A program made the translations under genes and the position numbers. This document shows positions 1 through 36,414 of a DNA stretch of 64,000 nt, one piece after another. The stretch is from Candidatus Moraniibacteriota bacterium (GTDB taxonomy: Bacteria; Patescibacteriota; Minisyncoccia; Moranbacterales; UBA1568). The stretch lies in the NCBI GenBank assembly GCA_963778555.1, contig CAVZUR010000005.1, positions 97,756 to 161,755 on the forward strand. Direction: 5' to 3'. Under the pieces are notes generated by a model, which had not been told where the DNA came from, ran no database searches, and saw nothing but the letters and a program-made list of their open reading frames with translations. Numbering within the stretch: the stretch's first letter is position 1; every line of letters starts with the position of its first letter.

Positions 1-1620
1 GTCACCAATGGTGCAGGGAGTATTACCATCGCTTCGACTCTGGGTGTGGCTGTCGACAGCGCTGAAATCACCGACAATGACCTGGACTTCATCGATTTCC
101 AGAATACGATGGATCTCGATGCCAACCTCACCCTGAATCAGACCACATTTACTTGGGACCCAGTCCTTCACCGGCACCACAACCAATGGCTACACCTACA
201 CCGCCGCCTCCCTCACCACGGGCTACGCTATGGACCTGAACGTCAACGGTGCCGTCCTCACCTCGGTGGCGCCATCAACATCGACGGCCGACTGGCGCGG
301 CAACTACCGGCTCCTTCAAGATTACGACCACGGGGCGGTGATGGCGGGGAGCTTCAAATCTCTGCCACCGCCACGATGCCTCTATATCAATCTCGGATGC
401 CGCGGCAATGACGACCGACTGGTGATCACCCCGCCGCCCTCGCACGGCTACCAGGACTGGTCAACGGCGACGCCACCTCACCCGGGTGCGCCATCGACAT
501 GACGGAACGACCGGAGTACTGCACTGCCGGATCCTCAAGATACGACGACTGGCGCCGCGAACCGGCACTGATCTCGGGACTGCCTCCGATATGCTCGCCC
601 CTCCAGAACGTCGCCTCTACCGTAGCTAGGCACGATGACGACGACGGGCGACTTGCTCACCCTTACTGCAAACTCGGCCACTAGTGCGACGGGACTTCTC
701 ACAATTGATGGCGGTAATGCGATGACAAGTGGTGGGGCCCTCAACATCACCGGCACTACCTATAATCATGGTGCTGATTTTGAAGAAGCCACTCTCGTGG
801 CTGTTGCTTATTCCGATACGACCTCTGGCGCTTTCAACACTACCACCTACGGCCTTGCGTCAACCCGACCATCAACATCACCACCGGTGCCGGCTCCAAA
901 GACAACAGTGCTATCTTCGTTCAACCATACCTCTGTACCGGTGCCACCCATTAATGTCTGTCCGGGACTCACGGATGCTCGGACATGGAACGACCAGGCC
1001 ATAAATGTTGGTTCTGGCTGGGATACGTATTCAACTCCTTTTCGCTCGATATCTCTGGTACTGGCGCCATCACCGGAGCGACGGGGATCACCTCGAGTGG
1101 CTCTATCACCTTTAGTGCCTTTACCAGTAATGGTGGTCCGCTCTACACCAACGGTTCGGGTGTCATCGCTCAAACCACTGCCGGGACAGCGACCCAAGTC
1201 CTCCATGGCGGTACTGCTCCAAGCTTCTCGGCCATTGTTGCTGCGGATATTACCGCTGACTCCCTCGACTTCACCGAATTCCAAGACACCCTCGATCTCG
1301 ATGCGGCCCTCACCCTGAACCAGACCACCAATACCTGGACCCAGTCCTTCACCGGCACCACCACCACCGGCTTCGCCTACACCGCCACTTCCCTCACCAC
1401 TGGCTCCGCCCTCAATGTCACTACCACCAATACCGCCACCGCCAACACCGCCCTCTCACCGGTTCAGTTCAATCTGACCAATGCTCAATCCACCCTCGCG
1501 AATACAGCTGGCATCAATGGAGTGCAAGTCAACTTCACCAACAACCCATCCATTGCGGGAAACACCGAAAATGCGGTTCGGATTCAGAACCAGGTCACGC
1601 GAACGTCACAGACAATGCGG
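1..1620 (+). pseudogene. Degenerate, multiply frameshifted 5' portion (or decayed paralogous copy) of the giant repetitive surface-protein gene; at least five frame switches between frames +1 and +2
   Basis: ORFs 46-411, 230-502, 635-1318 and 985-1818 alternate between two frames but all encode the same repeat modules seen in 1481-5629 (e.g. 'SLDF.EFQDTLDLDA.LTLNQTT.TW', 'MDLNVNGA.LTS', 'GAINIDG'). Alt-frame ORF 3082-3387 inside the clean gene gives the same junk peptide as 46-411, showing region 1-500 is a copy of ~3000-3500. Confidence 0.45.
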
Positions 1621-4600
1621 TCGCTCTCTCCTCCTCCTCGACAACGCCGATACTACCGCCACTGGCACCACCATCGTCACCGATGCCATCGCCATCACGA
1701 ACTCAGGCGGATCCAACTTCACCAACTTCCTCAATACCCCGACCCTCGACATCAGTGCGGCGGGGGCCATCACCGGAGCGACGGGGATCACAAGCTCGGG
1801 GAACATCACGTTCTCTAGCCTCACCGCTGGCTCTGTCCTTTTTGCGGGGACGTCGGGTATTCTCCAGCAAGACAATGCCAACTTCTTCTGGGATGATACG
1901 AACAATAGATTGGGGATCGGCGACACCACGCCCGATGGGCGGTTCGACTTCGACCTAGCCTCCACCTCGACGACGGCCGCGAATGAATACGGCGGTAACT
2001 ATACGTTCACGGATACTGGCGTCGTCACAACCGGTACGGACAATACTATCGGAGAGTCGGTCACAGTCACTCGGACCGGCGCGACCGGCGGGACGATCAG
2101 CACGTATGGAAGCCTCATCACGGCCACCGCCGATACGGCGGGCGCGGGCACGTCTGCCATTATCGGCCAGTATGTGACGGCCTCTGGCGCCGACACCACG
2201 TATGGGTTTTACGCCAATGTGACAGGTACGACCAGCGCGACTTCCTATGGCTATCTGTCGAACGTGACTGATGCCACGACAGGTGCCAATACCAATTATG
2301 CCGAGGCGCTTCAGATAACAGACACTGGTGTCGTGACGGCAGGTACGGATATCACGGTGGGCGACTATATCACCGTCACTCGAACCGGCGCGACCGGCGG
2401 GACGATCAATACCTACGGGGACGAAATCATCATAACGACGGACAATGCTGGTGCGGGCACGAGTACTGCCACTGGTGAGCTTATCGATACCGGTACGGCT
2501 GGAACGACGAATGCCGATACGACCTACGGCCTCTATGTCGCTACTGAAGCCAATGCCGGAACGACAGCGTTTGGCATCTATGTCGATGCGGGTATCCAGG
2601 CTGGAACCGAATACGCAGGCATCTTTATGAATGGCAATGTCGGTGTCGGGGATGCGACACCTCTCTCACTCTTCACTGTCGGCAATGGTGACCTCTTCCA
2701 GGTCAATTCGAGCGGTGCGATCGCCGCTGCCGCTGGTGTCACCTCTTCCGGTACCATCACCTTCTCTGGTCTTTCCACGGCCGGTATCGTCACCAACACT
2801 GCTGGTGGCGTCCTGGGGACGACCACGGCCGTCGCCGCGACCCTCGGCGGCACGGGCTTCTCCTCCTATGCGGTGGGTGATCTCCTCTACGCCAATACCA
2901 CGACAAGTCTCGCCAAACTCGCTGATGTGGCGGCGGGCAGCTGTCTCATCTCGGGGGGTGTCGGTGTAGCACCGACATGGGGAGTGTGTGGCGCGATCTC
3001 GGCTGACTCACTGGATTTTGTCGACTTCCAAGACACCCTCGACCTCGATGCCAATCTCGTCCTCAATCAAACCACCTTTACTTGGGATCAGTCCTTCACG
3101 GGGACGACGACCAATGGTTTCACGTATACGGCGGCGTCTCTGACCTCGGGCTACGCTATGGACCTGAACGTCAACGGTGCCGCCGTCCTCACCTCGGGCG
3201 GGGCTCTGAATATCGACGGCCCGACCGGTGCCGCGGCTCAGGCGGCGGGCTCACTTTTCAAGATCACGACCACGGGAGCAGTGACCGGGACGGACGGGAG
3301 CGGCAATTCATCGCAGATCTCGAGTGCGACGGTGACCGGTACTGTGTCGTCTATCTCGGATGCCGCGGTCATGACGACGACCGGTGACCTCCTCACCCTG
3401 ACCGCCAACGCAGCGACGACCACGACCGGCCTCCAGACGATCAATGCCACTGGTCTCACCACGGGCTATGCCATGGACCTGAACGTCAACGGTGCGGCGG
3501 TGCTCACTAGCGGTGGAGCCATCAATATCGACGGTCCGACGGGCGCGGCGGCTCAGGCCTCTGGTGCGCTCCTCAACATCACGACCACGGGAGCGGTCAC
3601 CGGTACGGCCGGTATCGGCAACTCACTCCAGGTGACGAGCGCTACCGTGACAGGCACGGTCGCCTCTATCACCGATGCGGCCACGATGACCACGACCGGC
3701 AATCTCCTCACTCTCACGGGCAATGCGGCGACGACGGCAACGGGCCTCCTCACGGTGAATGCCAACGGCCTCACGACGGGGAGTGCAGTGAACATCGCAT
3801 CGACCGCGACGGGACTCACGACCGGTGGCGCACTGCAGACCATCACACATTCGGGCTCGAATGCGGCCAACATCGGTTCGCTTCTCTCGCTCCAAAACAC
3901 CGGGACAGCCAGTGGCAACATCAGCCTCCTCATCCAGCACAATGCGACGGGAACAGGTAATCTGGCGTTCCGAGTCAACGATATCGCCGGCGATACGACA
4001 CCCGTGGTCATCGATGGCACGGGCCAGTTCGGTATCGGGACAGCTGCGCCGACGACATTGTTCGAGCTGTACGGCACCGGGTCGGCGGACGCGATCGCGA
4101 CGTTGACCGCGCCGGATGCAACCTTTGATCCGATCCTGAAGTATCGCACTGGCGCCACTCCGGCCGTCCAGTTCTCGCTCGGCATCGACAACACTGACTC
4201 GGACAAGTTCAAGATCTTCTCGGGTGATGGCGTCGGCTCGGGCGATGAATTCGTCATCGATAGTAACGGTGTCACGACAATCGCCAACCTGAACCTGGGT
4301 GCGACGACCTTCGACTCGGACGCCGGCGCGATCGTCTGGACGGATATGCCGGTGACGGCGACGACCGCCGCTGCGACCGTGATGAGCTATAGCGCGCAGA
4401 TTGATGCGACGAATCTCATGACGATGTATTCCGAGAGCAACGGTACGGGCGGCATTCAGAATACGCGTGTCGGTATCCTGACGACTGCCCCGCTTGATGT
4501 GCTGCATGTAGCTGGTGATGTGCGCGTCGGTACGGGCACCACGGGCTGTGTAAAAGACGCAGACGCGACGGTATTGACGGGAACCTGCTCTTCGGACGAA

Positions 4601-5629
4601 CGATTGAAGAAGAATATCATCCCGTTTGATAGTGTCCTGGATAATCTCGCCTCATTGACGCCCGTTACCTACAACTGGAGAAGTGATGAATTTCCGGATA
4701 AGCATTTCGGAGAAGCTGTGCAGCGCGGTCTGATTGCTCAGGATGTACAACGGGTATTTCCAGAGCTTGTGAAACAGGATGACGATGGCTATCTGCAGAT
4801 TGATTTTTCGAGCATTCAGTTCTATCTCTTGCAAGGTATCAAGGAAGAATACGCGTTGATTCAAGACCAATCAAACAGTATCGCCGCATTGTCTCTGGAG
4901 ACGACAGCTAGTATCACGACCTTGTCTGAACTCGAAGCAGCCGTTGAGGGACAGTTGATACTCGCGAGCGCGAACTTCACGACGCTGGCGGAAAAAGATG
5001 CCTTGATTGATACCAAACTGACAGAACATGATACGTACTTCGCCCGCGACCTGGCGCGGCTCGACGCAATTGATGCGCTGACGGCTCAGATGGCGCTCGA
5101 TCAGAACGCAGCCGCGGCCAACCTGGTGACGCTTCAGACTGAAATGACGGTTTTGACCGAGCAAGTCGGCACGCTCATGGAATTCTTCAACACGCTGGAC
5201 CTCGGCAATATGGTCGCGAAAGACGAGCTCGGCAATGTCGACCTGCTCGGCGGCACGCTCCGGGCCACTGCGCTCGCCACTGGCGGTATCACTATCGAAG
5301 TTGCCGATGAAGAGGCTCCGACCATTGGAACAGCGATGATCCTTCCAGTCGAGACGGACGCGGACGGCGATGGCAAAGATGATGAGACTGGTTCGGACGG
5401 CAAGAGTACGAGCGTCCTGACAAAAGCAATGATCCCGATGATCAACGGCTCACGCATCTTCACGAGCTTCAAGGGCAATCCGAACGCGTTTAGCTGGATC
5501 GAAAAGATCGTCACTGATGACGGGGAGTATGTCGGATTCAAGATCCGCGTCTCGGCGCCGGTCACGGAAAAGATCAAGGTCGACTGGTGGCTGATCGAGC
5601 AGAAGGATACGTTCTCGTCGAATCCATAA
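1481..5629 (+). CDS. Giant (>1380 aa) Thr/Gly/Ala-rich repetitive cell-surface protein (β-helix/fibre-like repeats) with peptidase S74-type intramolecular chaperone (auto-processing) domain and a coiled-coil-rich C-terminal region
   Basis: Uninterrupted 1382-aa ORF. Low-complexity T/G/A/S repeats. Tandem ~106-aa repeat (318 bp) at ~3153-3470 and 3471-3788. Motif block 'SSDERLKKNI...YNWRSDEF...GLIAQDVQRVFPELV...YLQIDFSSIQFYLLQGIKEEY' (~4590-4870) matches the tail-fibre/endosialidase C-terminal chaperone (Peptidase_S74) signature. Confidence 0.75.
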   Translation: MLNPPSRIQLASMECKSTSPTTHPLRETPKMRFGFRTRSRERHRQCGRSLLLLDNADTTATGTTIVTDAIAITNSGGSNFTNFLNTPTLDISAAGAITGATGITSSGNITFSSLTAGSVLFAGTSGILQQDNANFFWDDTNNRLGIGDTTPDGRFDFDLASTSTTAANEYGGNYTFTDTGVVTTGTDNTIGESVTVTRTGATGGTISTYGSLITATADTAGAGTSAIIGQYVTASGADTTYGFYANVTGTTSATSYGYLSNVTDATTGANTNYAEALQITDTGVVTAGTDITVGDYITVTRTGATGGTINTYGDEIIITTDNAGAGTSTATGELIDTGTAGTTNADTTYGLYVATEANAGTTAFGIYVDAGIQAGTEYAGIFMNGNVGVGDATPLSLFTVGNGDLFQVNSSGAIAAAAGVTSSGTITFSGLSTAGIVTNTAGGVLGTTTAVAATLGGTGFSSYAVGDLLYANTTTSLAKLADVAAGSCLISGGVGVAPTWGVCGAISADSLDFVDFQDTLDLDANLVLNQTTFTWDQSFTGTTTNGFTYTAASLTSGYAMDLNVNGAAVLTSGGALNIDGPTGAAAQAAGSLFKITTTGAVTGTDGSGNSSQISSATVTGTVSSISDAAVMTTTGDLLTLTANAATTTTGLQTINATGLTTGYAMDLNVNGAAVLTSGGAINIDGPTGAAAQASGALLNITTTGAVTGTAGIGNSLQVTSATVTGTVASITDAATMTTTGNLLTLTGNAATTATGLLTVNANGLTTGSAVNIASTATGLTTGGALQTITHSGSNAANIGSLLSLQNTGTASGNISLLIQHNATGTGNLAFRVNDIAGDTTPVVIDGTGQFGIGTAAPTTLFELYGTGSADAIATLTAPDATFDPILKYRTGATPAVQFSLGIDNTDSDKFKIFSGDGVGSGDEFVIDSNGVTTIANLNLGATTFDSDAGAIVWTDMPVTATTAAATVMSYSAQIDATNLMTMYSESNGTGGIQNTRVGILTTAPLDVLHVAGDVRVGTGTTGCVKDADATVLTGTCSSDERLKKNIIPFDSVLDNLASLTPVTYNWRSDEFPDKHFGEAVQRGLIAQDVQRVFPELVKQDDDGYLQIDFSSIQFYLLQGIKEEYALIQDQSNSIAALSLETTASITTLSELEAAVEGQLILASANFTTLAEKDALIDTKLTEHDTYFARDLARLDAIDALTAQMALDQNAAAANLVTLQTEMTVLTEQVGTLMEFFNTLDLGNMVAKDELGNVDLLGGTLRATALATGGITIEVADEEAPTIGTAMILPVETDADGDGKDDETGSDGKSTSVLTKAMIPMINGSRIFTSFKGNPNAFSWIEKIVTDDGEYVGFKIRVSAPVTEKIKVDWWLIEQKDTFSSNP
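4590..4870 (+). other. Peptidase S74 / intramolecular chaperone auto-processing domain within giant surface protein
   Basis: Conserved S74 chaperone-domain motifs (SDERLK, YNW, GLIAQDVQ, IDFSSIQFYLLQGIKE) read directly from the translation. Confidence 0.6.
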
Positions 5630-5967
5630 CCACTCTGCGTATGTATCAAGCACTGTCGCCATGAATAAAAAAAAGCCGGATGAGCAGTGGAGCGATCCGG
5701 CAGAGCCACGAGGCTGGCAGAAGGAATAGTCATGTCCTGGGAAGGGGCGGAAGCGCGGACACTTCTCCTCTCCCAGGACAGGATCATACCACCTGTCTAA
5801 AACTCAGGAAAAAAACTTTAACCAGTTTCCTGAGGCAGTGACATTCCGCGAAAGGCGCTTTTTCGAGAAGCGCTTTTTGCGTTACTTCTTATCTTAGAGG
5901 AGTTTGTCTCATTCTGGCAAATGAAATCATGCTATTTTCTAACCCGACTACCAACCTTACGACTAAA

Positions 5968-8807: not shown

Positions 8808-10229
8808 TCATGGGAACATATGCGGCAACGGATTCAGCTTCCACTCGGTGACACCTTTGGAAGCAGCGAATTCCTCCAAACGGTCGCTGTCGAAGGTGCC
8901 CTGGCACTCGAGGAGATAGAGGGGGAAAGCCTTCGGTACATAGACTTGGGCGATGTAGAACCCGAGCTTGGCTTGGATGGGATGCTTGGGGAAATAGGCA
9001 ATCGGGTAGTAGTCAGGGCCTCTTTTTCTCAGAACGGAGAGGCAGGCTTTCAGTTGGGTAGCATCATCGGTCGCTGAGGTGAGATCCTTTTGGCAGAGTT
9101 CCGCGTAGGAAACCTGCTTGCCGGAGAGGAACCACTGGAATTGCTGGATCTTTTCGGGACCGCGCCAGTAGAGTTGCCGTCCGATTTGACCGAGAACAGA
9201 AACGAATGGTTCGGATTGAGCATCCTTTTCCAGCTGCCGCTTATCACCCTCGTAATAAAACATTTCTGAGCTTATCACTATTTCTCTTAGAGAATGCCGT
9301 ATCGCTTGTTCGAATGTTGTCGCACTGGCGCCGCTCAGAACAATCTGAGGAGTCGCGCTCTTTGAGTTTAGGGCAGCAATAACGATAGACGGAATAGAGA
9401 GCGTTGTCACATCTACGATATGTAAAGACAGGCCGCATGATTCCAACGGGCGTATGATTTCCTGCATCTCCTCGGGGAGTGTTTCTACATCAATGATCCG
9501 CGGAGGAATCTGAGTGAGCCAGTGGACCAAGAATGCATCGCGCTCGATTGTTTCGAGGAGCCCACGCAGGAGAGCGCCATTTTTTGTGAAGTACCCGGCT
9601 GATCCGCTGGTCGTGGCGTTGACGAGAGGGGCTTCAGTGGAATAATTTTTGACGCACCATGAGGTCACTTGCCGCGGGATATACGTTTGTTCTTGCGTAA
9701 TGAGATTAATTCCACTCAGCCAATCCATCGGACGGGACGGGTCATGCTGGAGTTCCCGGTAATGCTCTCTTTGGATGTCCAAGAAGCGATGGTATTTCGG
9801 CGGGTAGAGTACTGGAAACTTTTTGAGCAGTTCGTTCGATGAAGCGATTAGTATGTCGGTATCCTTATTATACAAACCAGAAATGATGCGCTCAAGCATT
9901 TCGCCGATCGCTTTGGAAATAGCAGTCGCCCTATCTTTCGCAATCCCATGGCCGCTCACGCTCCGAAGATGTCCACGCACGACTACTTCTTTTTCCAGGG
10001 AATAAAAAAAGTATCCGGGAAAATGGAGACTTCTTTCTGCCATCGCATCGACGAGCCCTTTTTTTTTCAGATAAGTGTAAAGGGTTTCAGAGGCAGAGGT
10101 GACATCATCCGTGTGAGCAATATGCAGACTGTCCGCAAGCCAGGAATATCGGACGAATTGTTTTAATAAGCAAATCCGTATCCGATCGCCGATTCCCAGC
10201 GGTATTCGCCAGGGTCCGAACTTGTCCAT
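8808..10229 (-). CDS. YcaO-domain cyclodehydratase (TOMM/azoline-forming 'D' protein), paralogue 1
   Basis: 'TSGSAGYFTKNGALLRGLLETIERDAFLVHW' YcaO core. C-terminal Pro-rich 'NPLPHMFP' (PxPxP-type) motif typical of YcaO C-termini. ~474 aa from MDKFGPW. Confidence 0.8.
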   Translation of the reverse strand: MDKFGPWRIPLGIGDRIRICLLKQFVRYSWLADSLHIAHTDDVTSASETLYTYLKKKGLVDAMAERSLHFPGYFFYSLEKEVVVRGHLRSVSGHGIAKDRATAISKAIGEMLERIISGLYNKDTDILIASSNELLKKFPVLYPPKYHRFLDIQREHYRELQHDPSRPMDWLSGINLITQEQTYIPRQVTSWCVKNYSTEAPLVNATTSGSAGYFTKNGALLRGLLETIERDAFLVHWLTQIPPRIIDVETLPEEMQEIIRPLESCGLSLHIVDVTTLSIPSIVIAALNSKSATPQIVLSGASATTFEQAIRHSLREIVISSEMFYYEGDKRQLEKDAQSEPFVSVLGQIGRQLYWRGPEKIQQFQWFLSGKQVSYAELCQKDLTSATDDATQLKACLSVLRKRGPDYYPIAYFPKHPIQAKLGFYIAQVYVPKAFPLYLLECQGTFDSDRLEEFAASKGVTEWKLNPLPHMFP

Positions 10230-10349
10230 AATTGGTTTCTTTCGTTTGATTTCGTCTGGTCTAACCGAATGTACCAATATACAGAGTGATGTGGATAGTT
10301 TTACATGGAGATGTCATACAAGTACACCTACGTTTCTCCTGGTGTATTT

Positions 10350-10384
10350 TATCATGCATAAAAAAACAGGAGCCATGTGACAAC
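10350..10384 (-). terminator. Putative rho-independent terminator after secreted-protein gene
   Basis: Minus-strand reading ggagtcgtgttgtcacatggctcc followed by tgttttttt. Confidence 0.35.
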
Positions 10385-10425
10385 ACGACTCCTGGAATTT
10401 GCACCCTCAGCGTTTGAGGGCAGTC

Positions 10426-11241
10426 TCAATTACTTGCAGCGGCAGATTCCTTTTGGAAGACCGTGCTGTTTTGCCCATCACTCCCGCCATAACCGGCCCA
10501 CAGCTCATCGCCATGATTGGTGAAATAACATGTTCCACCCGCTCCCCCGCAGGGGAAAGCGAATTTCCCGTCCTTGATCTCTGCGGACTGGATCTTGCCG
10601 CTTGGTTTTTGCTGTGTGCCGTATATGAATTTGACCACACACTTCGCGTCGATTTCGCCGATCCAGAGCCACCGCTTGCCATAGCCCCAGTTTCCTGTCC
10701 AGCCACCGATGAAGGCGGCACAGGCTACTGGCACGTCGGCAGCCACCGGCTTGACCGAAAAGCCAGCTTCACGCTGAGGTTGCAAAGCCGCCAATTCTGT
10801 TTCGGCAAGTTTTCGGATGCTGACCGCCCGGGACTGTCCATTTGCGTCCGTGATAGTCCCGTTAAACGTGCCGTCTGGGTTTTGGGATGCTACGACCTTG
10901 CCCCCCAATCGGGTAATAAGCGATAACGTACGACCTTGAGCGGTCTCAATCATCTCTGCGCTAATCGGGAGCGGTTGCAGTCTCGGAAGACCGAGAGCAG
11001 CGTTGAGCGCGACTTTTCCAGTGTCGCCTTGTTTCGTTCCGCCAGAAAGCTGCAACGTCAGTGTTCGGTCGCTGCCGACGACCGTAATGAGCCATGAAGA
11101 GTTCAGATCGAATGGCAGCTGACTTGTCAGTGCCGCCAGAGTGATACTGTCGCTAGAGGCCTTCATCTGGGCGAAGCCAATGCTTGGCAGGCTGGAAAAA
11201 ACAGAGAAAAAAACCGAAAAGAGAATCGAAAGTGCCCGCAT
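10426..11241 (-). CDS. Secreted hypothetical protein (signal peptide) with Gly/Cys-rich C-terminal tail, embedded in the TOMM-like locus
   Basis: N-terminal 'MRALSILFSVFFSVFSSLPSIGFAQ' signal peptide. C-terminal '...FPCGGAGGTCYFTNHGDELWAGYGGSDGQ'. Confidence 0.55.
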   Translation of the reverse strand: MRALSILFSVFFSVFSSLPSIGFAQMKASSDSITLAALTSQLPFDLNSSWLITVVGSDRTLTLQLSGGTKQGDTGKVALNAALGLPRLQPLPISAEMIETAQGRTLSLITRLGGKVVASQNPDGTFNGTITDANGQSRAVSIRKLAETELAALQPQREAGFSVKPVAADVPVACAAFIGGWTGNWGYGKRWLWIGEIDAKCVVKFIYGTQQKPSGKIQSAEIKDGKFAFPCGGAGGTCYFTNHGDELWAGYGGSDGQNSTVFQKESAAASN

Positions 11242-11397
11242 GATAAACTACTCCTTGGTTGATTGGTAAGGGACAGCACCGCCACTATACCATATTTGCT
11301 ATATAAGTCAAATAGTAGTATTCCGTTTACGCATTGCTTTAAGTGCCGCTTTTTTTCTGCATTCTTCATTTACGACATATAATGGAAAGACCTCCGT

Positions 11398-12141
11398 ATG
11401 CATACATTTCTCTACAATTTTTTTCATCACGAGACCAATGATCGGACGGAAAAGGGCCTGGTGAGTATTCCGGCAGACAAGGGGCGCTGGCCGGAGTCAT
11501 GGAAAACGATAACGTGCAAACGGTATTCTCTGTTTCCGGAGGTTGAGCTTCCTGAAACGAGCGGGTCTTTGTTTGAGCAGCTCTTGCGAGAACGCAGATC
11601 GAGCGAAGGGCATATCGTGGGGAATATCCTCACTCTGCCCGTACTTGCCTATATCCTGCAGTGTGGGTATGGCCTGCAGGGCGGGAGCGAAGGAGATCAG
11701 AGGAAAGCGAACCGAACCGTTCCTTCCGGCGGGGGACGATATCCGCTCGAAGTGTATGTTTTTCTCTTCAAGCCGATTGGCACTTGCGTTTCGGGAATCT
11801 ATCATTACAGTGTGAAGCATCATTCCTTGGAACCAGTTGCGCTCATGCCATTCACGCTTGAAGATATTGGTTCTTTCGCACCGGAGCAGGCGTGGCTCCA
11901 GGATACGAACGGGATGATTTGCATCACGAGTGTGTTTCAGAGAACGGTTGAAAAATACGGCAGCCGCGGGTATCGCTACATCTTGCTGGAGGCTGGGCAT
12001 GCTGCTCAGAATATGCTGCTCGCCGGAACCGAAAAGGGCGTGAACATCATCCCGATTGGCGGCGTAGAGGCTGATAAAATAGAAAAAAAACTTGGCCTGA
12101 GCGGGGAAGAAGAAGGGGTCGTGTATACGCTCTTTTTATAA
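11398..12141 (+). CDS. SagB-type (McbC-like) FMN-dependent dehydrogenase of the nitroreductase superfamily (TOMM 'B' protein)
   Basis: 'GGRYPLEVYVFLFKP...SGIYHYSVKHHSLEPV...RGYRYILLEAGHAAQNMLLAGTEKGVNIIPIGG' are canonical SagB/nitroreductase motifs. Confidence 0.8.
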   Translation: MHTFLYNFFHHETNDRTEKGLVSIPADKGRWPESWKTITCKRYSLFPEVELPETSGSLFEQLLRERRSSEGHIVGNILTLPVLAYILQCGYGLQGGSEGDQRKANRTVPSGGGRYPLEVYVFLFKPIGTCVSGIYHYSVKHHSLEPVALMPFTLEDIGSFAPEQAWLQDTNGMICITSVFQRTVEKYGSRGYRYILLEAGHAAQNMLLAGTEKGVNIIPIGGVEADKIEKKLGLSGEEEGVVYTLFL

Positions 12142-12233
12142 TAAACCCTAGTATGCGGAGCGACTCCTCTTCAAAATTTTTCCATTGCTCGGGATACCTC
12201 TCCCTTAGGGAGTATGTGGAGGATATCGAGTCG

Positions 12234-13680
12234 ATGAGGCAGCATGGCCCGTGGCGGCTCCCGCTCGGCATCGGCGACCGGGTGCAGATTTTCTTTTTCT
12301 CCCTGATTCTGAAATACTCCTGGTTTTCTGATGCGTTGAGCATACGGTATCCCTATACGTGGAGCCCAGCGTATTCGGTGCTCATCGCCTATCTGAAAAG
12401 GTGTGGCGTAGTCGATGTGGTCCGGGAGCAGAATGCGAATCGCAGCGGATATTCCTTCTTCTCCCTTCAAAGGGGCATTTCCATAAATGAAAATATTCGG
12501 ACCATCGGCGGTCTGGGAGTCGACCAAGAGGTCTCGACGGCGTTTTCCAAAGCGATCGGCGAAATGCTTGAGCGCATCATTTCTGGTTTGTATAATAAGG
12601 ATACCGACATACTAATCGCTTCATCGAACGAACTGCTCAAAAAGTTTCCAGTACTCTACCCGCCGAAATACCATCGCTTCTTGGACATCCAAAGAGAGCA
12701 TTACCGGGAACTCCAGCATGACCCGTCCCGTCCGATGGATTGGCTGAGTGGAATTAATCTCATTACGCAAGAACAAACGTATATCCCGCGGCATATTGTT
12801 TCGTGGTTTGGGTTTGCCGAAGCGCGCGTGTTCAAAGACATTCTCCTGCATCCGACATCCAATGGCTGTGCCGGGTACTTTACGAAGACGGGTGCTGTTT
12901 TGCGAGGGCTGATCGAAGCAGTGCAACGGGACGCTTTTCTCGTCCATTGGCTCACGCAGATCGCCCCTGATCGCATCATCGAGGACACTCTGTCGCTAGA
13001 AATTCAGAAACAAGTCGGGGAATTCAAGGCGCGTGGAATCACCCTGCATATTCTCGATGTCACAGCTCTTTCTATCCCGTCCGTATCCATTGTGGCAATC
13101 AATGCTGAATCGGAAACTCCGCAGATTATTTTGAGCGGCGCAGAGCGGCGACATTTGAGCGGGCGGTGCAGGACGCACTCCGTGAAATGGTGCTGATGTC
13201 AGCGACTATGTTCTACCAAGGAGAAGCTAATAATAGAAAGAAAGAGCCTATGTTAGCAGAGCCGCAGCCATTCGTTTCTGATCTCAATGAGAAAACCAGG
13301 CAACTCTACTGGCGCGGTCCCGAAAAGATCCAGCAATTCCAGTGGTTCCTCTCCGGCAAGCAGGTTTCCTACGCGGAACTCTGCCAAAAGGATCTCACCT
13401 CAGCGACCGATGATGCTACCCAACTGAAAGCCTGCCTCTCCGTTCTGAGAAAAAGAGGCCCTGACTACTACCCGATTGCCTATTTCCCCAAGCATCCCAT
13501 CCAAGCCAAGCTCGGGTTCTACATCGCCCAAGTCTATGTACCGAAGGCTTTCCCCTCTATCTCCTCGAGTGCCAGGGCACCTTCGACAGCGACCGTTTGG
13601 AGGAATTCGCTGCTTCCAAAGGTGTCACCGAGTGGAAGCTGAATCCGTTGCCGCATATGTTTTCTTGATGAGCGATACAG
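12234..13680 (+). CDS. YcaO-domain cyclodehydratase paralogue 2, mosaic relative to paralogue 1, interrupted by two frameshifts (~13145 and C-homopolymer at ~13555-13560)
   Basis: ORFs 12153-13196 and 13166-13642 together align over full length to YcaO 1. Blocks 'KAIGEM...QTYIPR' and 'RQLYWRGPEKIQQ...VPKAFP' are identical in amino acid sequence (near-identical DNA, inverted), while the middle and N-terminal blocks are diverged. Copy 2 has CCCC where copy 1 has CCCCC at the shift site. Confidence 0.7.
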
Positions 13681-13777
13681 GTTGTGGAAAGAGGAGACAT
13701 CGTGTATCGTTTATAGTGTACGCGGTACCGGAGAGTCACGAGACAAATATAAATCATTTCAGGCCGTGTTAGCGAGT

Positions 13778-14470
13778 ATGTTTCAGAAAGTCAGGCGAGT
13801 TGCGAGCAGAAAACTCCTGTTTCTTGTTGGCGTATCTTTGGCCGGTATCCTTGGCATCCTGGGCAGTTATACGCGGACGAACTATTCGAAAAGCGGTTCG
13901 CTGGTTGTCCCAAAGGCGCAGGCGGATACCCCTCCCACTTGTGCTTCGTGCGGTTGCGCCTATACTGAGGACCAATGCGTTACATACTGGTCCTGTTTTC
14001 CGGCCGACACGCCTATCAGCACACCAGCCGGTAAGCGAGTCATACAGGAGCTGGCGGTCGGAGACAGCGTGCTTGGTTTCGACATTGAAACCGGCCGGAC
14101 CGGAGAATACCCGGTGACCAGAACCTTCAAACACGGCCGAAACGATGCGAATACCGTGTATTCTCCGCTGATTCAGATTACGCATGCAAAAGGATCGTTC
14201 CTCGCGACGGATAATCATTGGATCTATCGGCGCAATGGCCGGGTCGGGGAATACGCCAATTTTGACCGTGTCGGAACGCTTCAAGTCGGTGACATGCTGA
14301 CGACAGAAAGCGGCGAAGAGGTGGCGGTGACAGCGATCGAACCGGGGCCCGAGTATGATTTTGTGTACAATCTCGAGGTGGCGGAGGCCCATACGTATTT
14401 CGCTAGCGGTATCCGGGTACACAATAGCGGCAGTGGACCTGGTGGCTGTTGTGGCTCTTCAGGAAAATAA
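13778..14470 (+). CDS. Small secreted Cys/Gly/Ser-rich protein whose Cys-rich core is interrupted by a complete mini-intein-like Hint domain (13994-14425); candidate RiPP/TOMM precursor
   Basis: Signal/TM 'MFQKVRRVASRKLLFLVGVSLAGILGILG'. N-extein '...PPTCASCGCAYTEDQCVTYWS'. Hint blocks: A 'CFPADTPI', B 'GSFLATDNHWIY' (TxxH), F 'VYNLEVAEAHTYFA', G 'SGIRVHN' then +1 Ser. C-extein 'SGSGPGGCCGSSGK' then stop. Confidence 0.7.
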   Translation: MFQKVRRVASRKLLFLVGVSLAGILGILGSYTRTNYSKSGSLVVPKAQADTPPTCASCGCAYTEDQCVTYWSCFPADTPISTPAGKRVIQELAVGDSVLGFDIETGRTGEYPVTRTFKHGRNDANTVYSPLIQITHAKGSFLATDNHWIYRRNGRVGEYANFDRVGTLQVGDMLTTESGEEVAVTAIEPGPEYDFVYNLEVAEAHTYFASGIRVHNSGSGPGGCCGSSGK

Positions 14471-16571: not shown

Positions 16572-17247
16572 CAATGGTAAGTTTGCGTGTATAATTCTTG
16601 CTGCAGGCAAGTCCGAAAGGTTTAATGCGAATAAACTCTTTGCGACCCTTACCAAAGGACCCCTTCTTTTTATGGTTGTCGATTCCATTTTATCTTTTAA
16701 GTTGCTTGGTAAGTTAGTGATTGTCGCAGCGAAGGGGGATTTTGATCGAATTCAGAAAAGATATGGACGGAATCAAGAAGTGAACGTCGTTGTCGGTGGA
16801 ATAAACCGAACGGAAAGCACGCTACGGGGCCTGCATGTTGTCGCACAGGGGGGATACGAATATGTCTATGTTCACGACGGATCTCGCCGACTCTTTACGA
16901 GAAATGATTTTATCCGGCTCAAGAGAGAGTTGCTGTCAAAGAATCTGGATGGAGTTGTCCAATATGTCAAGATATACGATTCGCTCATGAGTTTCGATGG
17001 GAGTATTGAAAACAACAATAGTTATCTCGACAAAACGAGGGTAGTGCAATTAAAGACACCCCACGTTTACAAAGTGGGTTCAATCTTAAAATGTCTGACT
17101 CAGTATAAACCTCAAGTCAGGAGAGAATTGGAGAACGTTGAAATCATGTCTTTGTACGGGAAAGAAATAGGATTTATCGATGGTTCTATCGCCAATATAA
17201 AAATTACTTACAAAAGTGATTTACGGGTCATTAAAAAGCTGTTGTGA
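16531..17247 (+). CDS. Nucleotidyltransferase of the IspD/TarI family (CDP-alcohol-forming cytidylyltransferase)
   Basis: 'FACIILAAGKSERF' N-terminal signature of MEP cytidylyltransferase / ribitol-5-P cytidylyltransferase family. Confidence 0.65.
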   Translation: MGLMAVLTMSMKSSNGKFACIILAAGKSERFNANKLFATLTKGPLLFMVVDSILSFKLLGKLVIVAAKGDFDRIQKRYGRNQEVNVVVGGINRTESTLRGLHVVAQGGYEYVYVHDGSRRLFTRNDFIRLKRELLSKNLDGVVQYVKIYDSLMSFDGSIENNNSYLDKTRVVQLKTPHVYKVGSILKCLTQYKPQVRRELENVEIMSLYGKEIGFIDGSIANIKITYKSDLRVIKKLL

Positions 17248-19388
17248 AAAAGATATCTTTCGTCGTCTATTATCCGTATCAGTGGTTTATCTATCGGAAT
17301 ATCTATAGACAGATACCGGCTGACAAGCGGGAAGTCATCGTTGATCTGAGCGATAATCCGGGACTTCAGGATGAGGAAGTAAGGATGAGCATCGCTTCTT
17401 TGCTTCAACGAGAGAGCGTTCCGTTTCGGGTCCTCGAGAAAGTGATTTGTTTCAATCGGAAACTGCTTCAGGATTTTTTCACTGATGTCGAGGTCATCGT
17501 ATCTTGCTGGGAAAACGGTTGCGTGTCGAACAATGCCCTGCGACATATTAAAAAAGTAAACGTGACTTACGGAATAGCCAAAGAATTGACGATGCTCCGG
17601 CCAACGCGTTCGATCTACGATGTCATATTGGCGTATGGCGCGCGTGATCAGCGGTATTTCGAATTGCTCACGAAATCCATAGCCATCGGTAATCCGCGAC
17701 TGGACAATTATTACCGTGGCATAGCTGATGATTCCATTCGGGAAAAACTGTCAAGATATTTCAAAGATAAAAAAAAGAAAACCATACTGTATGTTCCGAC
17801 TCACGGAGATCTCGGGTCATTTCATGAAATGTTACCTACGTTCGCACGGATATCGAGACAATATAATATCATTTTTAAGCCACACTATTATACTTTGAGG
17901 GAGGAGAAAGAGATTATAGAAAAGTACCGGCAGATAGAGTCGCTTTTGGTCATCGATGACACGTGGGACACGATTGAAGTTATGTCCGTAAGCGATATCA
18001 TCGTGAGCGATAACTCGAGCGCTATTTTCGATGCGATGCAGATCGATAAGCCGTTAATCGTATGTGATTTTCTGGATAATCAATTTATAGATACTATTCA
18101 TAAAAAAATCCGTCTTGCAAAAAAAGGAACGGGAATACTTACGGCGCTGACGTATTCAGACAGTTTGGAACAGGAGATAAAAAGAGGAGGTCTAGCAATG
18201 ACCATAAAAAAACCGAATGATATTGATGACCTTCTGGAAAACATAGATGACACAGACGGCCGGTATCGGGACTTTCGGAAAGAAATCGTTGCTGCGAATT
18301 TCAAATATGTTGATGGTCATTCGTCTGAAAGAGCTGTCGAGATCATTCTGCGAATATACGGCACGAAGAGGACGCATGTGCCGGGTATCCTGCACCATGC
18401 ATACCTCGCGTATAATAACCGAGCGTATCAATGGAGTATCGAATCTGAACACAAGGAAACTGTCCTTACGACTGTCCCGAGTACGACCATTGTCTGGATT
18501 TTCTGCGAGTTGCGTCAGAAGAATGATGAGATTATATGCACCATCTACTCAGCATTGAACGAAAAGGAGGTCACCACAGTCTGTGTTTCGGGGAGTGTCG
18601 GAAAAGATGTGCGTGACACTCTTTCACGGAGTGAATTCTCTGACAGGATTATATTTTTTGAAAATCATGCAGACGGGATAAATCTTGTTTATTCGCGGCT
18701 CGGCATCTGCGATAACCTTCTTGTGGTGAAGGCGAATACTATTATCAAAGACTTGAATACGATATGTAACTTCAAAGTATCCTGTAAACGAGACATGATC
18801 TTTTTTTCTGAAAATATTGTTCCTTTTCCAGAAAATTGGGTAAGCCGACTCTTTTATCAGTTGAAATATGAGATGCTTGGCTTTCGGAGTCTGGCAATGA
18901 ATACGCTGCTCTCTATCCCGTATGAGTTGATCTGTGCTTCCGAAAAGTGCGCCGTTCTCATCGATAGTAAGGCCCTGCTTGCTGTTTCACCACGGCCGGT
19001 TGTAGACACTTTTATCTTCGAGTGGGTTCTTTCGTCTTTTATTAACATTGATTCATTGAAAAGTCAGGGTCGCGATTTTTATGGTACGCTCTGCGATGAT
19101 TATATCCTTATGCCGAATTTCTTCATGAATGGTAGCCGGTCGGCCAATGCGGATATTATTAACAAACTTGTGGCAAAAGGACTGATATTGAATGCTTTAG
19201 GTATCCCCATAAAGCGGTGGCCGGATAAAAAAATCGGTAAACTGCTGTGGAAAATCGCGACTGGCGACTTCAGGCGCTATCAACTCTTGAAATTGATACT
19301 GTTGAAGGTGCTCACTGTGAAAAAGCAAGTATTTCTCAGCAAAGCCCGTTCTTTTTTGGAGAAGGTTTACGCAGATGACGCCCCATAG
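17244..19388 (+). CDS. CDP-glycerol/ribitol-phosphate glycerophosphotransferase (TagF/TagB family) with extra C-terminal domain
   Basis: 'IIFKPHYYT...VSDIIVSDNSSAIFDAMQIDKPLIVCDF' are TagF-family catalytic motifs. 714 aa. Confidence 0.65.
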   Translation: MKKISFVVYYPYQWFIYRNIYRQIPADKREVIVDLSDNPGLQDEEVRMSIASLLQRESVPFRVLEKVICFNRKLLQDFFTDVEVIVSCWENGCVSNNALRHIKKVNVTYGIAKELTMLRPTRSIYDVILAYGARDQRYFELLTKSIAIGNPRLDNYYRGIADDSIREKLSRYFKDKKKKTILYVPTHGDLGSFHEMLPTFARISRQYNIIFKPHYYTLREEKEIIEKYRQIESLLVIDDTWDTIEVMSVSDIIVSDNSSAIFDAMQIDKPLIVCDFLDNQFIDTIHKKIRLAKKGTGILTALTYSDSLEQEIKRGGLAMTIKKPNDIDDLLENIDDTDGRYRDFRKEIVAANFKYVDGHSSERAVEIILRIYGTKRTHVPGILHHAYLAYNNRAYQWSIESEHKETVLTTVPSTTIVWIFCELRQKNDEIICTIYSALNEKEVTTVCVSGSVGKDVRDTLSRSEFSDRIIFFENHADGINLVYSRLGICDNLLVVKANTIIKDLNTICNFKVSCKRDMIFFSENIVPFPENWVSRLFYQLKYEMLGFRSLAMNTLLSIPYELICASEKCAVLIDSKALLAVSPRPVVDTFIFEWVLSSFINIDSLKSQGRDFYGTLCDDYILMPNFFMNGSRSANADIINKLVAKGLILNALGIPIKRWPDKKIGKLLWKIATGDFRRYQLLKLILLKVLTVKKQVFLSKARSFLEKVYADDAP

Positions 19389-19454
19389 TTGTTGAAAGGA
19401 TGACCTAAGGCAGGACAACCAGACTTGAGAATTATGTGCTAGAATGGTCGTAAT

Positions 19455-20888
19455 TTGGCTGAAATGCCATCTCAGAATACATCAATTCCCTCAGATACGA
19501 TAACCGCACGCATCCCTATGGAGATGAAAGGAGTGATAAAGGATAATCAAAATCCTCGGGCCTCGATAGGCATTCTTTGCTCCTTCCTTCCGTTTTTTTT
19601 CGTCTTCGAAAAGGTCTATAAGAATTTGGAAAATGTTGAATTTATTCTTGATTTTACGACTCTCCCCATTGGAATTCCCTATCCAGAGTGGTATAAGGAA
19701 CGAATGCGAAAGTATTTTACAAATCAAAATGTTTATTTTCGCGATCTTGAAGCAAGCAATTTTACCCCGGCAGAGTTTTTTTCGAAATACCACACATTGG
19801 TAAGTGGATCTTTTGATGGTCTGATGGCGCATAAGTGCAATCAAACCAAAAAAAAAGTGCGAGTGATGTATGGCCTCGCCAAAGACCTCAATAGTTTTTC
19901 TCTCACAAATACGCATTTCGACCTGGTAGCATGTCCCTCGGAGTATGTCGCTAAGAGAATGCAAGATCTATGCGGTGTTCGTGTCGCGGTGACCGGTGAT
20001 CCCAAATATGATCGCTACATTCTTGATGCCTCGCCAACACCGCCAAGTATAGAGGAAATTCTAAAAGCGAGTCAGGGCAAGAAGATCGTCTTATTTGCTC
20101 CGACATGGGGGAATCTTTCATCTGAGAAAAGAATCCTCCCCGTTCTTGTGGAGCTATCTCAAAAATATACTGTTTTCTACAAGCCGCATCACATGACAAT
20201 GATATCCCAGTCAGAGGTCATTAAAGACTTCGACAGGATTTCGGATATTCACATAATCTGGGACGATGTGAGTTTCATGGATATGTTGAAGAAAGTCGAT
20301 GTGGTAATCACGGACAATAGCAGCGCTATATTTGACACCATCATTGTTAAAAAACCTCTAGTCCTTATTGATATCACGGTTGAGGGAAAATTTCCTTATG
20401 CAAAATCCCCATTCTATTCTTTTCGGGGGGGGAAATTCGGTGGTGTTTCTACATCACTTGAGAGTCTCGAGCAGGTAGTGAAGGTAGAGGGCCGGGAAAT
20501 TGCTCCAGTAGTACGGCTTTCAAAAAAATTGATTGAGGATACGTTGCCACCACTTGCGACTGCTATCGAAGCGGCAATTGAATCAGCCGGGGGGTTAATT
20601 TATTTGGAACGGCAAAAGCAGGTATTGAATGATTATTCGGGAGTGATTGACGGAAAAGCGGGGGAGCGCATTGCAAGTGAAATCCAATATATGGTCGATA
20701 ATTACGTAGAAGATTCCAAAAGCGCGCTTGAACCATATGTGTATGACTTTCAGCATAAAGTACGCGAGGAGGATCGGGACGTATTTGATTGGGAAAACCA
20801 GGATAGGTTGGATGAACAAAAGATATTGAACATACGGCGGTTACCAATGGTTGAAAAGGTTAAAAAAATCATAGAATTATTCTATTAG
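19455..20888 (+). CDS. Second TagF-family CDP-alcohol phosphotransferase
   Basis: 'FYKPHHMT...VDVVITDNSSAIFDTIIVKKPLVLID' TagF signature. Confidence 0.65.
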   Translation: MAEMPSQNTSIPSDTITARIPMEMKGVIKDNQNPRASIGILCSFLPFFFVFEKVYKNLENVEFILDFTTLPIGIPYPEWYKERMRKYFTNQNVYFRDLEASNFTPAEFFSKYHTLVSGSFDGLMAHKCNQTKKKVRVMYGLAKDLNSFSLTNTHFDLVACPSEYVAKRMQDLCGVRVAVTGDPKYDRYILDASPTPPSIEEILKASQGKKIVLFAPTWGNLSSEKRILPVLVELSQKYTVFYKPHHMTMISQSEVIKDFDRISDIHIIWDDVSFMDMLKKVDVVITDNSSAIFDTIIVKKPLVLIDITVEGKFPYAKSPFYSFRGGKFGGVSTSLESLEQVVKVEGREIAPVVRLSKKLIEDTLPPLATAIEAAIESAGGLIYLERQKQVLNDYSGVIDGKAGERIASEIQYMVDNYVEDSKSALEPYVYDFQHKVREEDRDVFDWENQDRLDEQKILNIRRLPMVEKVKKIIELFY

Positions 20889-34672: not shown

Positions 34673-35053
34673 ATGTTTATAGAGAAAAATACAGGAACCG
34701 TGTTTATGACAGCCACGTTCGTGGCGCTAGTTGTGTTCGCTGCTTTCGGATTGACCTCGGAAGTCTGGGCTCAGTGGAATATGGCCGACCCGAACCTTGC
34801 CGACTCGGGCCTTTCGGATTCGACGGCCTATGACATCCTCGTGACGCTCATGAATTGGCTTCTCGCCATATTGGGCTTCATCGCCATTATCGCCTTTGTG
34901 ATCTCCGGCATGCAGTACTTGACGGCGGCGGGAGACGAGGGGTTGGCGGAGCGGGCCAAGAGCAATTTGAAATACTCCATCATCGGCATCATCGTCGCGC
35001 TCTCGGGCTATATTATCATCGTGACGATCAGTGACGTGTTCCTGTCGGCCTAA
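34673..35053 (+). CDS. VirB2/TrbC-pilin-like protein, array member D
   Basis: '...FVISGMQYLTAAGDEGLAERAKSNLKYSIIGIIVALSGYIII'. Confidence 0.55.
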   Translation: MFIEKNTGTVFMTATFVALVVFAAFGLTSEVWAQWNMADPNLADSGLSDSTAYDILVTLMNWLLAILGFIAIIAFVISGMQYLTAAGDEGLAERAKSNLKYSIIGIIVALSGYIIIVTISDVFLSA

Positions 35054-35093
35054 ACCTAACAGTGGGAGGCCAGTATCAAAGGCAGGATCAGTT

Positions 35094-35528
35094 ATGAGCG
35101 GCCGGAACAGTATGCACACAAAAACGAACACCCCCCAGCGAATACAGGTTTTTCCGAAGATTTTTTATTTCGGGGTTTTTCTTTTGTTTGGGGTATTGTT
35201 TCTCGGACCAACAGAGCTCTTTGCACAAACGTGTCCGGCTGGATTTAGTGCGGAGAATGGCACGTGTTGGCCTACCAATACAGGTCTCTCAGAGGCGTCG
35301 CTCTATGATATTATCGTGGCGGTCATGAACTGGATTCTCGCGATTGTCGGTTTCATCGCTATCATTGCCTTCACCATCTCAGGTGTCCAATATATGACCG
35401 CGGCCGGGGATGATTCGCAGATTGAAACCGCCAAGCGCAACATGAAGTATTCCGTCGTCGGTGTTATCGTCGCGCTTTCGGGCTATATCGTCATCGCGAC
35501 AATCGATAATTTGTTCCTGTCAGCCTAA
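35094..35528 (+). CDS. VirB2/TrbC-pilin-like protein, array member E, with short Cys-containing ectodomain
   Basis: 'QTCPAGFSAENGTCWP' then '...FTISGVQYMTAAGDDSQIETAKRNMKYSVVGVIVALSGYIVI'. Confidence 0.55.
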   Translation: MSGRNSMHTKTNTPQRIQVFPKIFYFGVFLLFGVLFLGPTELFAQTCPAGFSAENGTCWPTNTGLSEASLYDIIVAVMNWILAIVGFIAIIAFTISGVQYMTAAGDDSQIETAKRNMKYSVVGVIVALSGYIVIATIDNLFLSA

Positions 35529-35590
35529 GTGGCTCAGGTGTCAGTGCACCCAGAGAAAGTCTCAAAAAAACAGCCAGTCACTCGGATAGC

Positions 35591-36400: not shown

Positions 36401-36414
36401 ACTGATACGAGGCT

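Follow-up and report, generated by a model that had tools for sequence, protein, structure and literature searches.

Intramolecular chaperones of the peptidase S74 type, such as those of endoNF, T5 pb1 and MYRF, promote trimerisation of the fibre that precedes them and then cleave themselves; in MYRF, this cleavage separates an N-terminal trimer from the C-terminal part of the protein. S74 fibres encoded by cells are already known. Bdellovibrio has 13 mosaic adhesive trimer (MAT) proteins (PMC10769870), and annotations as 'tail fiber domain-containing protein' are widespread in bacteria. Here we describe a fibre gene at the start of a 64,000-nucleotide (nt) stretch of a Candidatus Moraniibacteriota genome (contig CAVZUR010000005.1, positions 97,756 to 161,755; hereafter the window), in which an open reading frame (ORF) of 1382 codons encodes an S74 domain followed by a coiled coil and a terminal β-sandwich (the knob). 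We consider it probable, at roughly 0.6, that window positions 1-5629 hold the 3' end of a Moranbacteria gene for a giant trimeric surface fibre secreted by Sec, with the ORF as its last intact ~1330 codons. New here is an internal, discrete, swappable S74 cassette placed before a conserved coil and K1-lyase_C-like knob that define a family of giant proteins; our literature searches returned no description of such a cassette together with a conserved coil/knob giant family.

The S74 subgroup of Bdellovibrio bacteriovorus MAT proteins, e.g., Bd3182, resembles the window family in several respects: its members are chromosomal, secreted, long fibres and carry an S74 chaperone/protease with SDxxxK and V-G-x-x-x-x-P-x-x-x-L capping loops upstream of it, and the MAT proteins as a whole, like the window family, comprise S74 and non-S74 members whose C-terminal domains differ (PMC10769870). 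The same study provides the experimental precedent for a self-cleaving, cell-encoded S74 fibre, namely Bd3182 and its S782A mutant (PMC10769870). S74 is terminal in MATs, however, whereas the window family has ~250 more residues (coil and β-sandwich) that are conserved in non-S74 members too. Its proteins are also 2-5 times longer and belong to another phylum, the Patescibacteria. Phage chaperones (K1F endosialidase 3GW6, T5 pb1 4UW8/8HQZ, GA-1 gp12 3GUD, S16 gp37 6F45) share the domain, its Ser-Lys dyad and a terminal helix, but lie at the extreme C-terminus of proteins without a signal peptide, whereas in the window a giant cellular protein carries it internally. The ICA of the eukaryotic myelin regulatory factor (MYRF, 7DC3) is likewise an internal S74-type domain, with further polypeptide behind it, although there the downstream part is a transmembrane anchor in the endoplasmic reticulum rather than a soluble coiled coil and β-sandwich, and organisms and biology differ. 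Finally, the knob is comparable to K1-lyase_C (PF24146; phage capsule depolymerases and tailspikes 7W1C, 9K4A and 7EEA) in size and in forming the β-sandwich with which a trimeric fibre or spike ends, but it follows a long coiled coil and S74 instead of a β-helix enzyme and carries an Asp-rich insertion.

An initial annotation of the ORF, made by reading its translation, had proposed an S74 domain, to be given up if either the profile match or the catalytic Ser/Lys pair were missing. Both are clearly there: Pfam PF13884 matches aa 1038-1098 across profile positions 1-58 of 58 (E=8.5e-17; 61.6 bits vs a cut-off of 22) as the sole Pfam match in the ORF, and alignment places an intact dyad, Ser1038 and Lys1043, in the sequence SDERLK (SDxxxK). 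All of the motifs quoted in that annotation were likewise found in the translation. A profile built from the window S74 domain and its relatives (alignment A3), in which Ser, Asp and Lys(+5) are invariant, matched the long-tail-fibre chaperone of S16 (6f45, E=6e-17) and MYRF ICA (7dc3_A, E=1.1e-10), as well as a phage tail fibre (8jov), the T5 L-shaped fibre (8hqz_d) and the released neck-appendage chaperone of GA-1 (3gud_A). The dyad, as S[DNE]xxxK, is kept in 8/8 S74-bearing genome loci and in 65/77 cluster representatives that have both S74 and the C-terminal module described below, the exceptions being mostly fragments that start within the domain. Judged from its sequence, the S74 chaperone with its intact dyad is genuine.

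Ser1038 aligns to residue 1 of 3gud_A ('SDERHK'). Residue 1 of the released GA-1 chaperone is the point where S74 domains cut themselves. By analogy, a cut is predicted N-terminal to Ser1038 (nt 4592), which would free aa 1038-1382 (nt 4592-5626), a fragment of 345 aa. This bears on the suggestion of a separate residual piece at ~4870-5629, which we could not uphold: with the cut before Ser1038, everything after S74 would stay fused to the chaperone. The domain does lie near, and not at, the end of the protein, as the initial annotation had it, with 345 residues from the catalytic Ser to the stop against a canonical ~110-175 for S74 domains at an extreme C-terminus. PHROG tail-fibre profiles align up to ~aa 1158 and stop there 6-20 positions before their own ends; the canonical chaperone thus ends at ~aa 1158. 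In an AlphaFold2 (AF2) model of the last 382 aa, the S74 α/β unit closes with helix 109-135.

No match in Pfam, NCBIfam or PHROG was found for the ~225-250 residues after the chaperone. We modelled them with AF2 as part of aa 1001-1382 (20-sequence alignment; mean predicted local distance difference test, pLDDT, 71) and in a separate model of aa 1224-1382. The proposed coiled-coil-rich extension after S74 is borne out by a single 91-residue helix (Table 1) with a heptad-type hydrophobic periodicity of 3.5 residues, the Fourier power of which was matched by 0/2000 shuffles. Behind it lies the eight-stranded β-sandwich, with strands at pLDDT ~88-95 in the aa 1224-1382 model. Its best BFVD matches were K1-lyase_C-domain and tail-fibre proteins (E=1.9e-3 to 3.8e-3, probability 0.98-1.0, TM 0.34-0.40), and its fold matches in the PDB were the C-terminal domains of tailspikes and depolymerases 9k4a, 7eea and 7w1c (E=0.02-0.2). 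At the sequence level, the window knob gave no match to the PF24146 hidden Markov model at E<=1, and the best of 25 family members reached E=0.093 (1/25). A homolog of the same layout, P0131 (S74 at 463-519, then coil, then terminal domain), scores 29.7 bits against PF24146 (cut-off 27) and aligns to the window module at E=9e-28. K1-lyase_C membership of the window knob is only transitive, because P0131 passes the cut-off while the window sequence does not. We take the knob to be a tailspike C-terminal domain, K1-lyase_C-like but divergent, with an Asp-rich (DADGDGKDD) insertion. Residues D306/G307 (...DG) of this Asp-rich loop are invariant in alignment A1, and the loop is missing from P0131, P0081 and P0084; the DxDxDGxDD pattern by itself suggests that it may bind Ca2+. 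Outside Moranbacteria, P0189 (Candidatus Nomurabacteria, 1321 aa) and P0062 (Dormibacteraeota, 561 aa) have S74 and then an extra terminal β-domain, ending in ...FDWWIL and ...LDWLIVH, respectively. The post-S74 knob may reach beyond the Moranbacteria family.

Relatives of the gene are intact at 2,168 aa (locus L003) and 2,358 aa (L016), and are open over >3,545 codons in L022 and >3,601 codons in L015. The full-length ones begin with a Sec-type signal peptide (e.g., MPIYVKNKNRKTAYKSLISALAVGVLVLGWFDLRPSFAQ) and a conserved N-terminal domain of ~100-130 aa, followed by long Thr/Gly/Ala-rich repeat cassettes, a conserved 'neck', a variable cassette and a conserved C-terminal module made of the coil and β-sandwich. 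Clustering at 50% identity yielded a family of at least 124 clusters. Among 124 cluster representatives with the module, 77 had S74 and 32 were clearly without it, as counted with a search profile whose S74 columns bias the ranking toward S74. Module-confirmed representatives reach 4,205 aa, the longest protein in the match list (5,603 aa) having failed the module filter. S74 was present just upstream of the module in 8 of 31 genome loci, and most of the others were without it. In most of the 124 representatives the module ends 0-3 residues from the C-terminus. Because many relatives without S74 end in this module, the coil and β-sandwich form an independent, family-defining C-terminal module and are no appendage of the chaperone. 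Patescibacteria are the source of the close relatives and, with few exceptions, of the genome loci with the module.

The S74 cassette is exchanged with precision between orthologs. In the closest syntenic ortholog, L001, nucleotide identity to the window is ~70% on both flanks (window 4207-4456 and 4880-5608), and between them an unrelated cassette of ~150 aa ('...GRIYYRYGGAWHY...LIPYVDEYLEDGAVHGLYARF...') replaces the ~420 nt that encode the S74 cassette. Comparison of the L001 cassette with S74 revealed no detectable similarity (hhalign probability 0.3%). A third, larger type of cassette occurs in L016 and P0001.

Under our preferred reading of a giant secreted fibre, the protein would be exported unfolded, and its C-terminal region (S74 chaperone, ~13-nm coiled coil and K1-lyase_C-like β-sandwich) would nucleate trimerisation, with S74 templating the folding of the preceding β-structured fibre. 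The Ser1038/Lys1043 dyad would then cut the chain just before Ser1038, freeing chaperone, coil and knob as one fragment and exposing a new fibre tip; in relatives with a non-S74 cassette, coil and knob would stay as the permanent end of the fibre. Because S74-less paralogs keep coil and knob, we infer that the common role of the module is C-terminal trimer nucleation and capping, to which S74 adds removal of the cap. The fibre probably serves to attach the cell to a host, to a partner cell or to a surface. The basis for such a role as attachment organelle, which the initial annotation had also proposed, is analogy with the MAT fibres of Bdellovibrio (PMC10769870). Of this picture, the identity of the domain, its dyad, the architecture, the chromosomal origin, the spread of the family and the exchange of cassettes were observed, and trimerisation, cleavage, release and adhesion are predicted.

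The coil and β-sandwich may instead be the functional end of the fibre, either an envelope anchor or a distal receptor-binding knob, and not merely a discarded folding aid, in which case S74 would act as a MYRF-like release or unmasking switch, or the cleaved piece would remain non-covalently bound. Such a role fits the module's standing as the most conserved part of the family, its likeness to tailspike C-terminal domains and lectin-like sandwiches (Helix pomatia agglutinin, K1 lyase), and the putative Ca2+ binding of the Asp-rich loop; the ICA of MYRF is, moreover, an internal S74 that releases an N-terminal trimer. The module nevertheless has neither a family match nor any known anchor, be it a transmembrane segment, LPXTG, SLH or another motif, and the conserved N-domain is the more obvious anchor if the signal peptide is cleaved, as in MAT fibres (PMC10769870). 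We consider it unlikely that the module is the functional end.

The ORF itself is less than a gene. The Thr/Gly-rich protein of >1380 aa described in the initial annotation is real as an ORF and in its composition, but the product is incomplete, without a start or signal peptide of its own. A check of the upstream sequence for the N-terminus and signal peptide revealed that ATG 1481 is no true N-terminus, as homologous fibre-coding sequence reaches base 1 through many frame changes; the N-terminus of the gene lies outside the window. Whether the tblastn query was the ORF, a same-contig paralog or an intact relative, the high-scoring segment pairs there switched frame, at 50-90% identity. A codon-usage Viterbi path placed ~17 frame switches in 1-1640, 15 of these between 150 and 1030, and two in 1640-5626, which compensate each other and are likely spurious; from nt ~1625 to the stop, the frame is open over ~1330 codons. 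Residues 1-~53 of the ORF (MLNPPSRIQL...RERHRQCGRS) are Arg-rich and overlie real coding sequence of another frame, and we found neither homologs nor a signal peptide for them. At this junction the window runs from RIQNQVT (frame 1) through ANVTDNAVAL (frame 3) into LLLLDNADTTATG (frame 2), whereas the same-contig paralogs P0110, P0114, P0126 and P0172 read straight across it: IQNQLTANVTDNAVSALLLLDNADSTATG. Because the intact paralog sequence spans the junction, two 1-nt deletions near 1597 and 1626 are indicated. The database gene call, P0107 (1352 aa), begins at nt 1571. This 1352/1382-aa 'protein' is a fragment, the 3' part of a larger gene, whether broken or mis-assembled.

Related fragments occur elsewhere. 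The four paralogs just named, encoded beyond the window on the 228,612-bp contig from which it comes, are fibre fragments of 619-1657 aa built of near-identical ~460-aa cassettes. Several of these fragments run out of frame at their ends, and at least one much larger repetitive fibre gene is therefore present in the genome, fragmented in the assembly. In an independent Moraniibacteriota metagenome-assembled genome (MAG), the locus L023:1-11044 (JBBCGM010000002.1, contig s11024.ctg011046l) has a fibre gene with S74 and module in at least 5 frame pieces, the N-terminal one being called as a separate 254-aa protein, P0370. Because L023 is split too, frame breaks in such fibre genes are not unique to the window assembly.

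The interruption upstream of nt 1625 is due either to a sequencing or assembly error, in which near-identical 1.4-kb repeats were not properly polished, or to genuine decay of the gene. DNA alignment to an intact internal copy located 1-nt indels at 2-3-nt homopolymers (ACCC vs A-TC, GG vs GGG, CC vs CCC). Single-base homopolymer indels in near-identical repeats are typical of unpolished long-read consensus; those seen here resemble consensus errors but could be real. If they are real, the ORF would be what remains, without expression, of a giant fibre gene in decay, a reading that concerns expression in this organism and not what the sequence encodes. The number of frame switches and the lack of a start and signal peptide fit such decay, as do the in-frame identity of 157-847 to other copies (merely 46-62%), the out-of-frame ends of the same-contig paralogs and the broken gene of L023. 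Set against them are the position of the indels, the long open stretch with all conserved S74 and module residues intact, the intact housekeeping genes of the window, and the frames of other relatives, open over 2,168 to >3,600 codons. A dead gene is possible, and we hold it to be doubtful.

Within the intact part, the fibre body is rich in T (19.7%), G (14.1%) and A (13.7%). Its tandem repeat had been described as an 'exact' 318-bp repeat (3153-3788); we found two diverged copies instead, with a period of 315, 2.0 copies and 76% matches by Tandem Repeats Finder (TRF) and 75% identity in repeat family D1. The capping-loop motif V-G-G/N-pi-x-x-P-x-x-x-L, defined for S74 proteins of the MAT/MyRF type (PMC10769870), has four matches, at aa 144, 387, 850 and 997 (nt 1910, 2639, 4028 and 4469), the last of which is shortly upstream of the catalytic Ser. 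Ahead of the predicted cleavage site, a conserved Cys pair (TGC...x10-12...C-SSD) is near-invariant among aligned bacterial S74 relatives (C16 in alignment A3, C3 in A2), and it is possible that C1023 and C1036 form an extracellular disulfide loop at this site.

The window is Moranbacteria chromosome, with six tRNAs, intact ValRS, NusA, trigger factor, TsaD and RecG genes, and arrays of PF18895 T4SS_pilin genes. All close homologs of the ORF are from Candidatus Moranbacteria/Moraniibacteriota MAGs, and the MAG loci L001, L014 and L002 are syntenic with the window, each with the fibre 3' end, then an ortholog of the gene at 30311-32911, then the pilin array and NusA. Matches of the S74 region to 39 PHROG tail-fibre/baseplate families, and of the knob's fold to phage proteins, would suit the tail-fibre gene of a prophage or phage remnant. 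Such an origin is highly improbable, however, given that no phage genes were found flanking the fibre gene in the window, that the locus is syntenic across several Moranbacteria MAGs beside a membrane/tetratricopeptide repeat (TPR) protein, a pilin array and NusA, and that full-length relatives have Sec signal peptides and sizes of 2-5.6 thousand amino acids (kaa). In addition, the fibre body and module are without a PHROG match, and a search of 2.9 M IMG/VR contigs did not turn up the module, the only two loci that matched doing so in the S74 part alone. The initial annotation had called the fibre host-encoded, and the housekeeping genes and tRNAs, the synteny and the absence of phage genes nearby agree with it.

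Table 1. Features of the fibre gene and its surroundings, in window coordinates.
Feature	Position (nt)	Strand	Details
Upstream fibre-coding continuation, many frames	1-1624	+	F1 1-156, F2 157-264, F1 265-288, scrambled 289-1032, F1 1033-1624
ORF	1481-5629	+	1382 codons; mechanical ORF starting at ATG 1481
Spurious 5' extension of ORF	1481-1639	+	Out-of-frame reading, codons 1 to ~53
Thr/Gly/Ala-rich fibre body, uninterrupted	1625-4591	+	aa 49-1037; homologs in Moranbacteria giant proteins
Tandem pair of diverged 315-bp (105-aa) units	3139-3780	+	TRF and repeat-family search
Capping-loop motif VGILTTAPLDVL	4469-4504	+	41 aa before catalytic Ser; regex on translation
Cys pair C1023...C1036	4547-4588	+	Directly before predicted cleavage site
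S74 intramolecular chaperone	4592-4885	+	aa 1038 to ~1135; Ser1038 nt 4592-4594, Lys1043 nt 4607-4609
Coiled-coil stalk	4922-5194	+	aa 1148-1238; one helix (AF2 148-238), pLDDT up to 93
Terminal β-sandwich, distant K1-lyase_C-like	5237-5596	+	aa 1253-1372; eight strands; ends ...KVDWWLIEQK
Asp-rich loop VETDADGDGKDDETGSDGKSTSV in β-sandwich	5348-5416	+	Candidate Ca2+ site
Terminator-like hairpin	5847-5881	+	3' of stop; 16-pair stem, T-rich tail; consensus-scan pattern match only
Segment resembling a genomic island	5922-30270		~24.3 kb; GC lower, 42-51%
Two YcaO genes and nitroreductase	8808-13196		Azoline-RiPP-like cluster
PT-HINT protein	13682-14470		
Two CDP-glycerol glycerophosphotransferase-like genes	17244-20888		
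Multipass-membrane protein with C-terminal TPRs	30311-32911	+	866 aa
PF18895 T4SS_pilin array	35031-38241		Follows membrane/TPR gene

Several neighbours of the fibre gene recur in related genomes. The 866-aa membrane/TPR protein has 77% aa identity to its counterpart in L001, and its gene lies directly 3' of the fibre gene in 9 related loci; together with the pilin array it makes up a conserved cell-surface locus. The ~24.3-kb segment that separates it from the fibre gene in the window is absent from the syntenic L001, L014 and L002 and looks like a genomic island. It also encodes a PaaX_M-like protein, a Big_2 protein and a TPR protein, besides the genes of a candidate azoline-containing ribosomally synthesised and post-translationally modified peptide (RiPP) cluster and the others in Table 1. 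In 11 related loci (L004, L007, L011, L013, L015, L017, L020-L023, L026), a ~2000-aa protein with an N-terminal signal/transmembrane segment is encoded directly 3' of the fibre gene; the window has no such gene. The Moranbacteria-type module also occurs in many MAGs labelled 'uncultured Bdellovibrionales bacterium' (L002, L003-L008, L011, L013, L015, L026, etc.), of which L002 is syntenic with the window and Moraniibacteriota loci at ~66-81% nucleotide identity (70-76% in most segments), the NusA region included. The label of these MAGs looks doubtful.

Some observations weigh against a giant secreted fibre with a cleavable C-terminal cap. As assembled, the gene has no start or signal peptide and so many upstream frame breaks that it may not be expressed. 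The S74 domains known so far stand at the end of their proteins, and here ~250 residues lie behind the domain, although MYRF is a precedent for cleavage by an internal one. Conservation is higher in the module than in the fibre body, which would be expected of an anchor or assembly element at least as much as of a discarded cap. Neither BFVD nor the PDB gave a fold match for the knob at E<=1e-3. MAT fibres have a signal peptide followed by a conserved, β-rich N-terminal domain of ~130 aa (PMC10769870), and a query with the N-domain of the window's relatives matched only Patescibacteria and no Bdellovibrio proteins, in a word-index search of limited sensitivity.

To our knowledge, how members of the Candidate Phyla Radiation (CPR)/Patescibacteria recognise and hold partner cells is largely unknown beyond type IV pili. 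The present analysis defines a large family of giant secreted CPR fibres, with members of up to 4.2 kaa among those confirmed to have the module. Their conserved stalk-and-knob module, with an optional and precisely swappable phage-type self-cleaving cassette, makes them concrete candidate attachment structures, and the window family is a bacterial case of an internal S74, otherwise known from eukaryotic MYRF. For annotation, the lesson is that the 1352/1382-aa database 'protein' is a fragment, produced where frame breaks divide a far longer repetitive gene. A further, rather speculative and quite unlikely reading would make S74 a swappable internal MYRF-like switch and the conserved coil with a Ca2+-binding knob the real anchoring or capping element of the fibre. 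If true, strains with the S74 cassette would autoproteolytically detach or unmask a multi-thousand-residue fibre, while those with an alternative cassette would keep the module fused. Episymbiotic CPR cells would then have attachment fibres that are genetically switchable between tethered and released, or capped and uncapped, forms.

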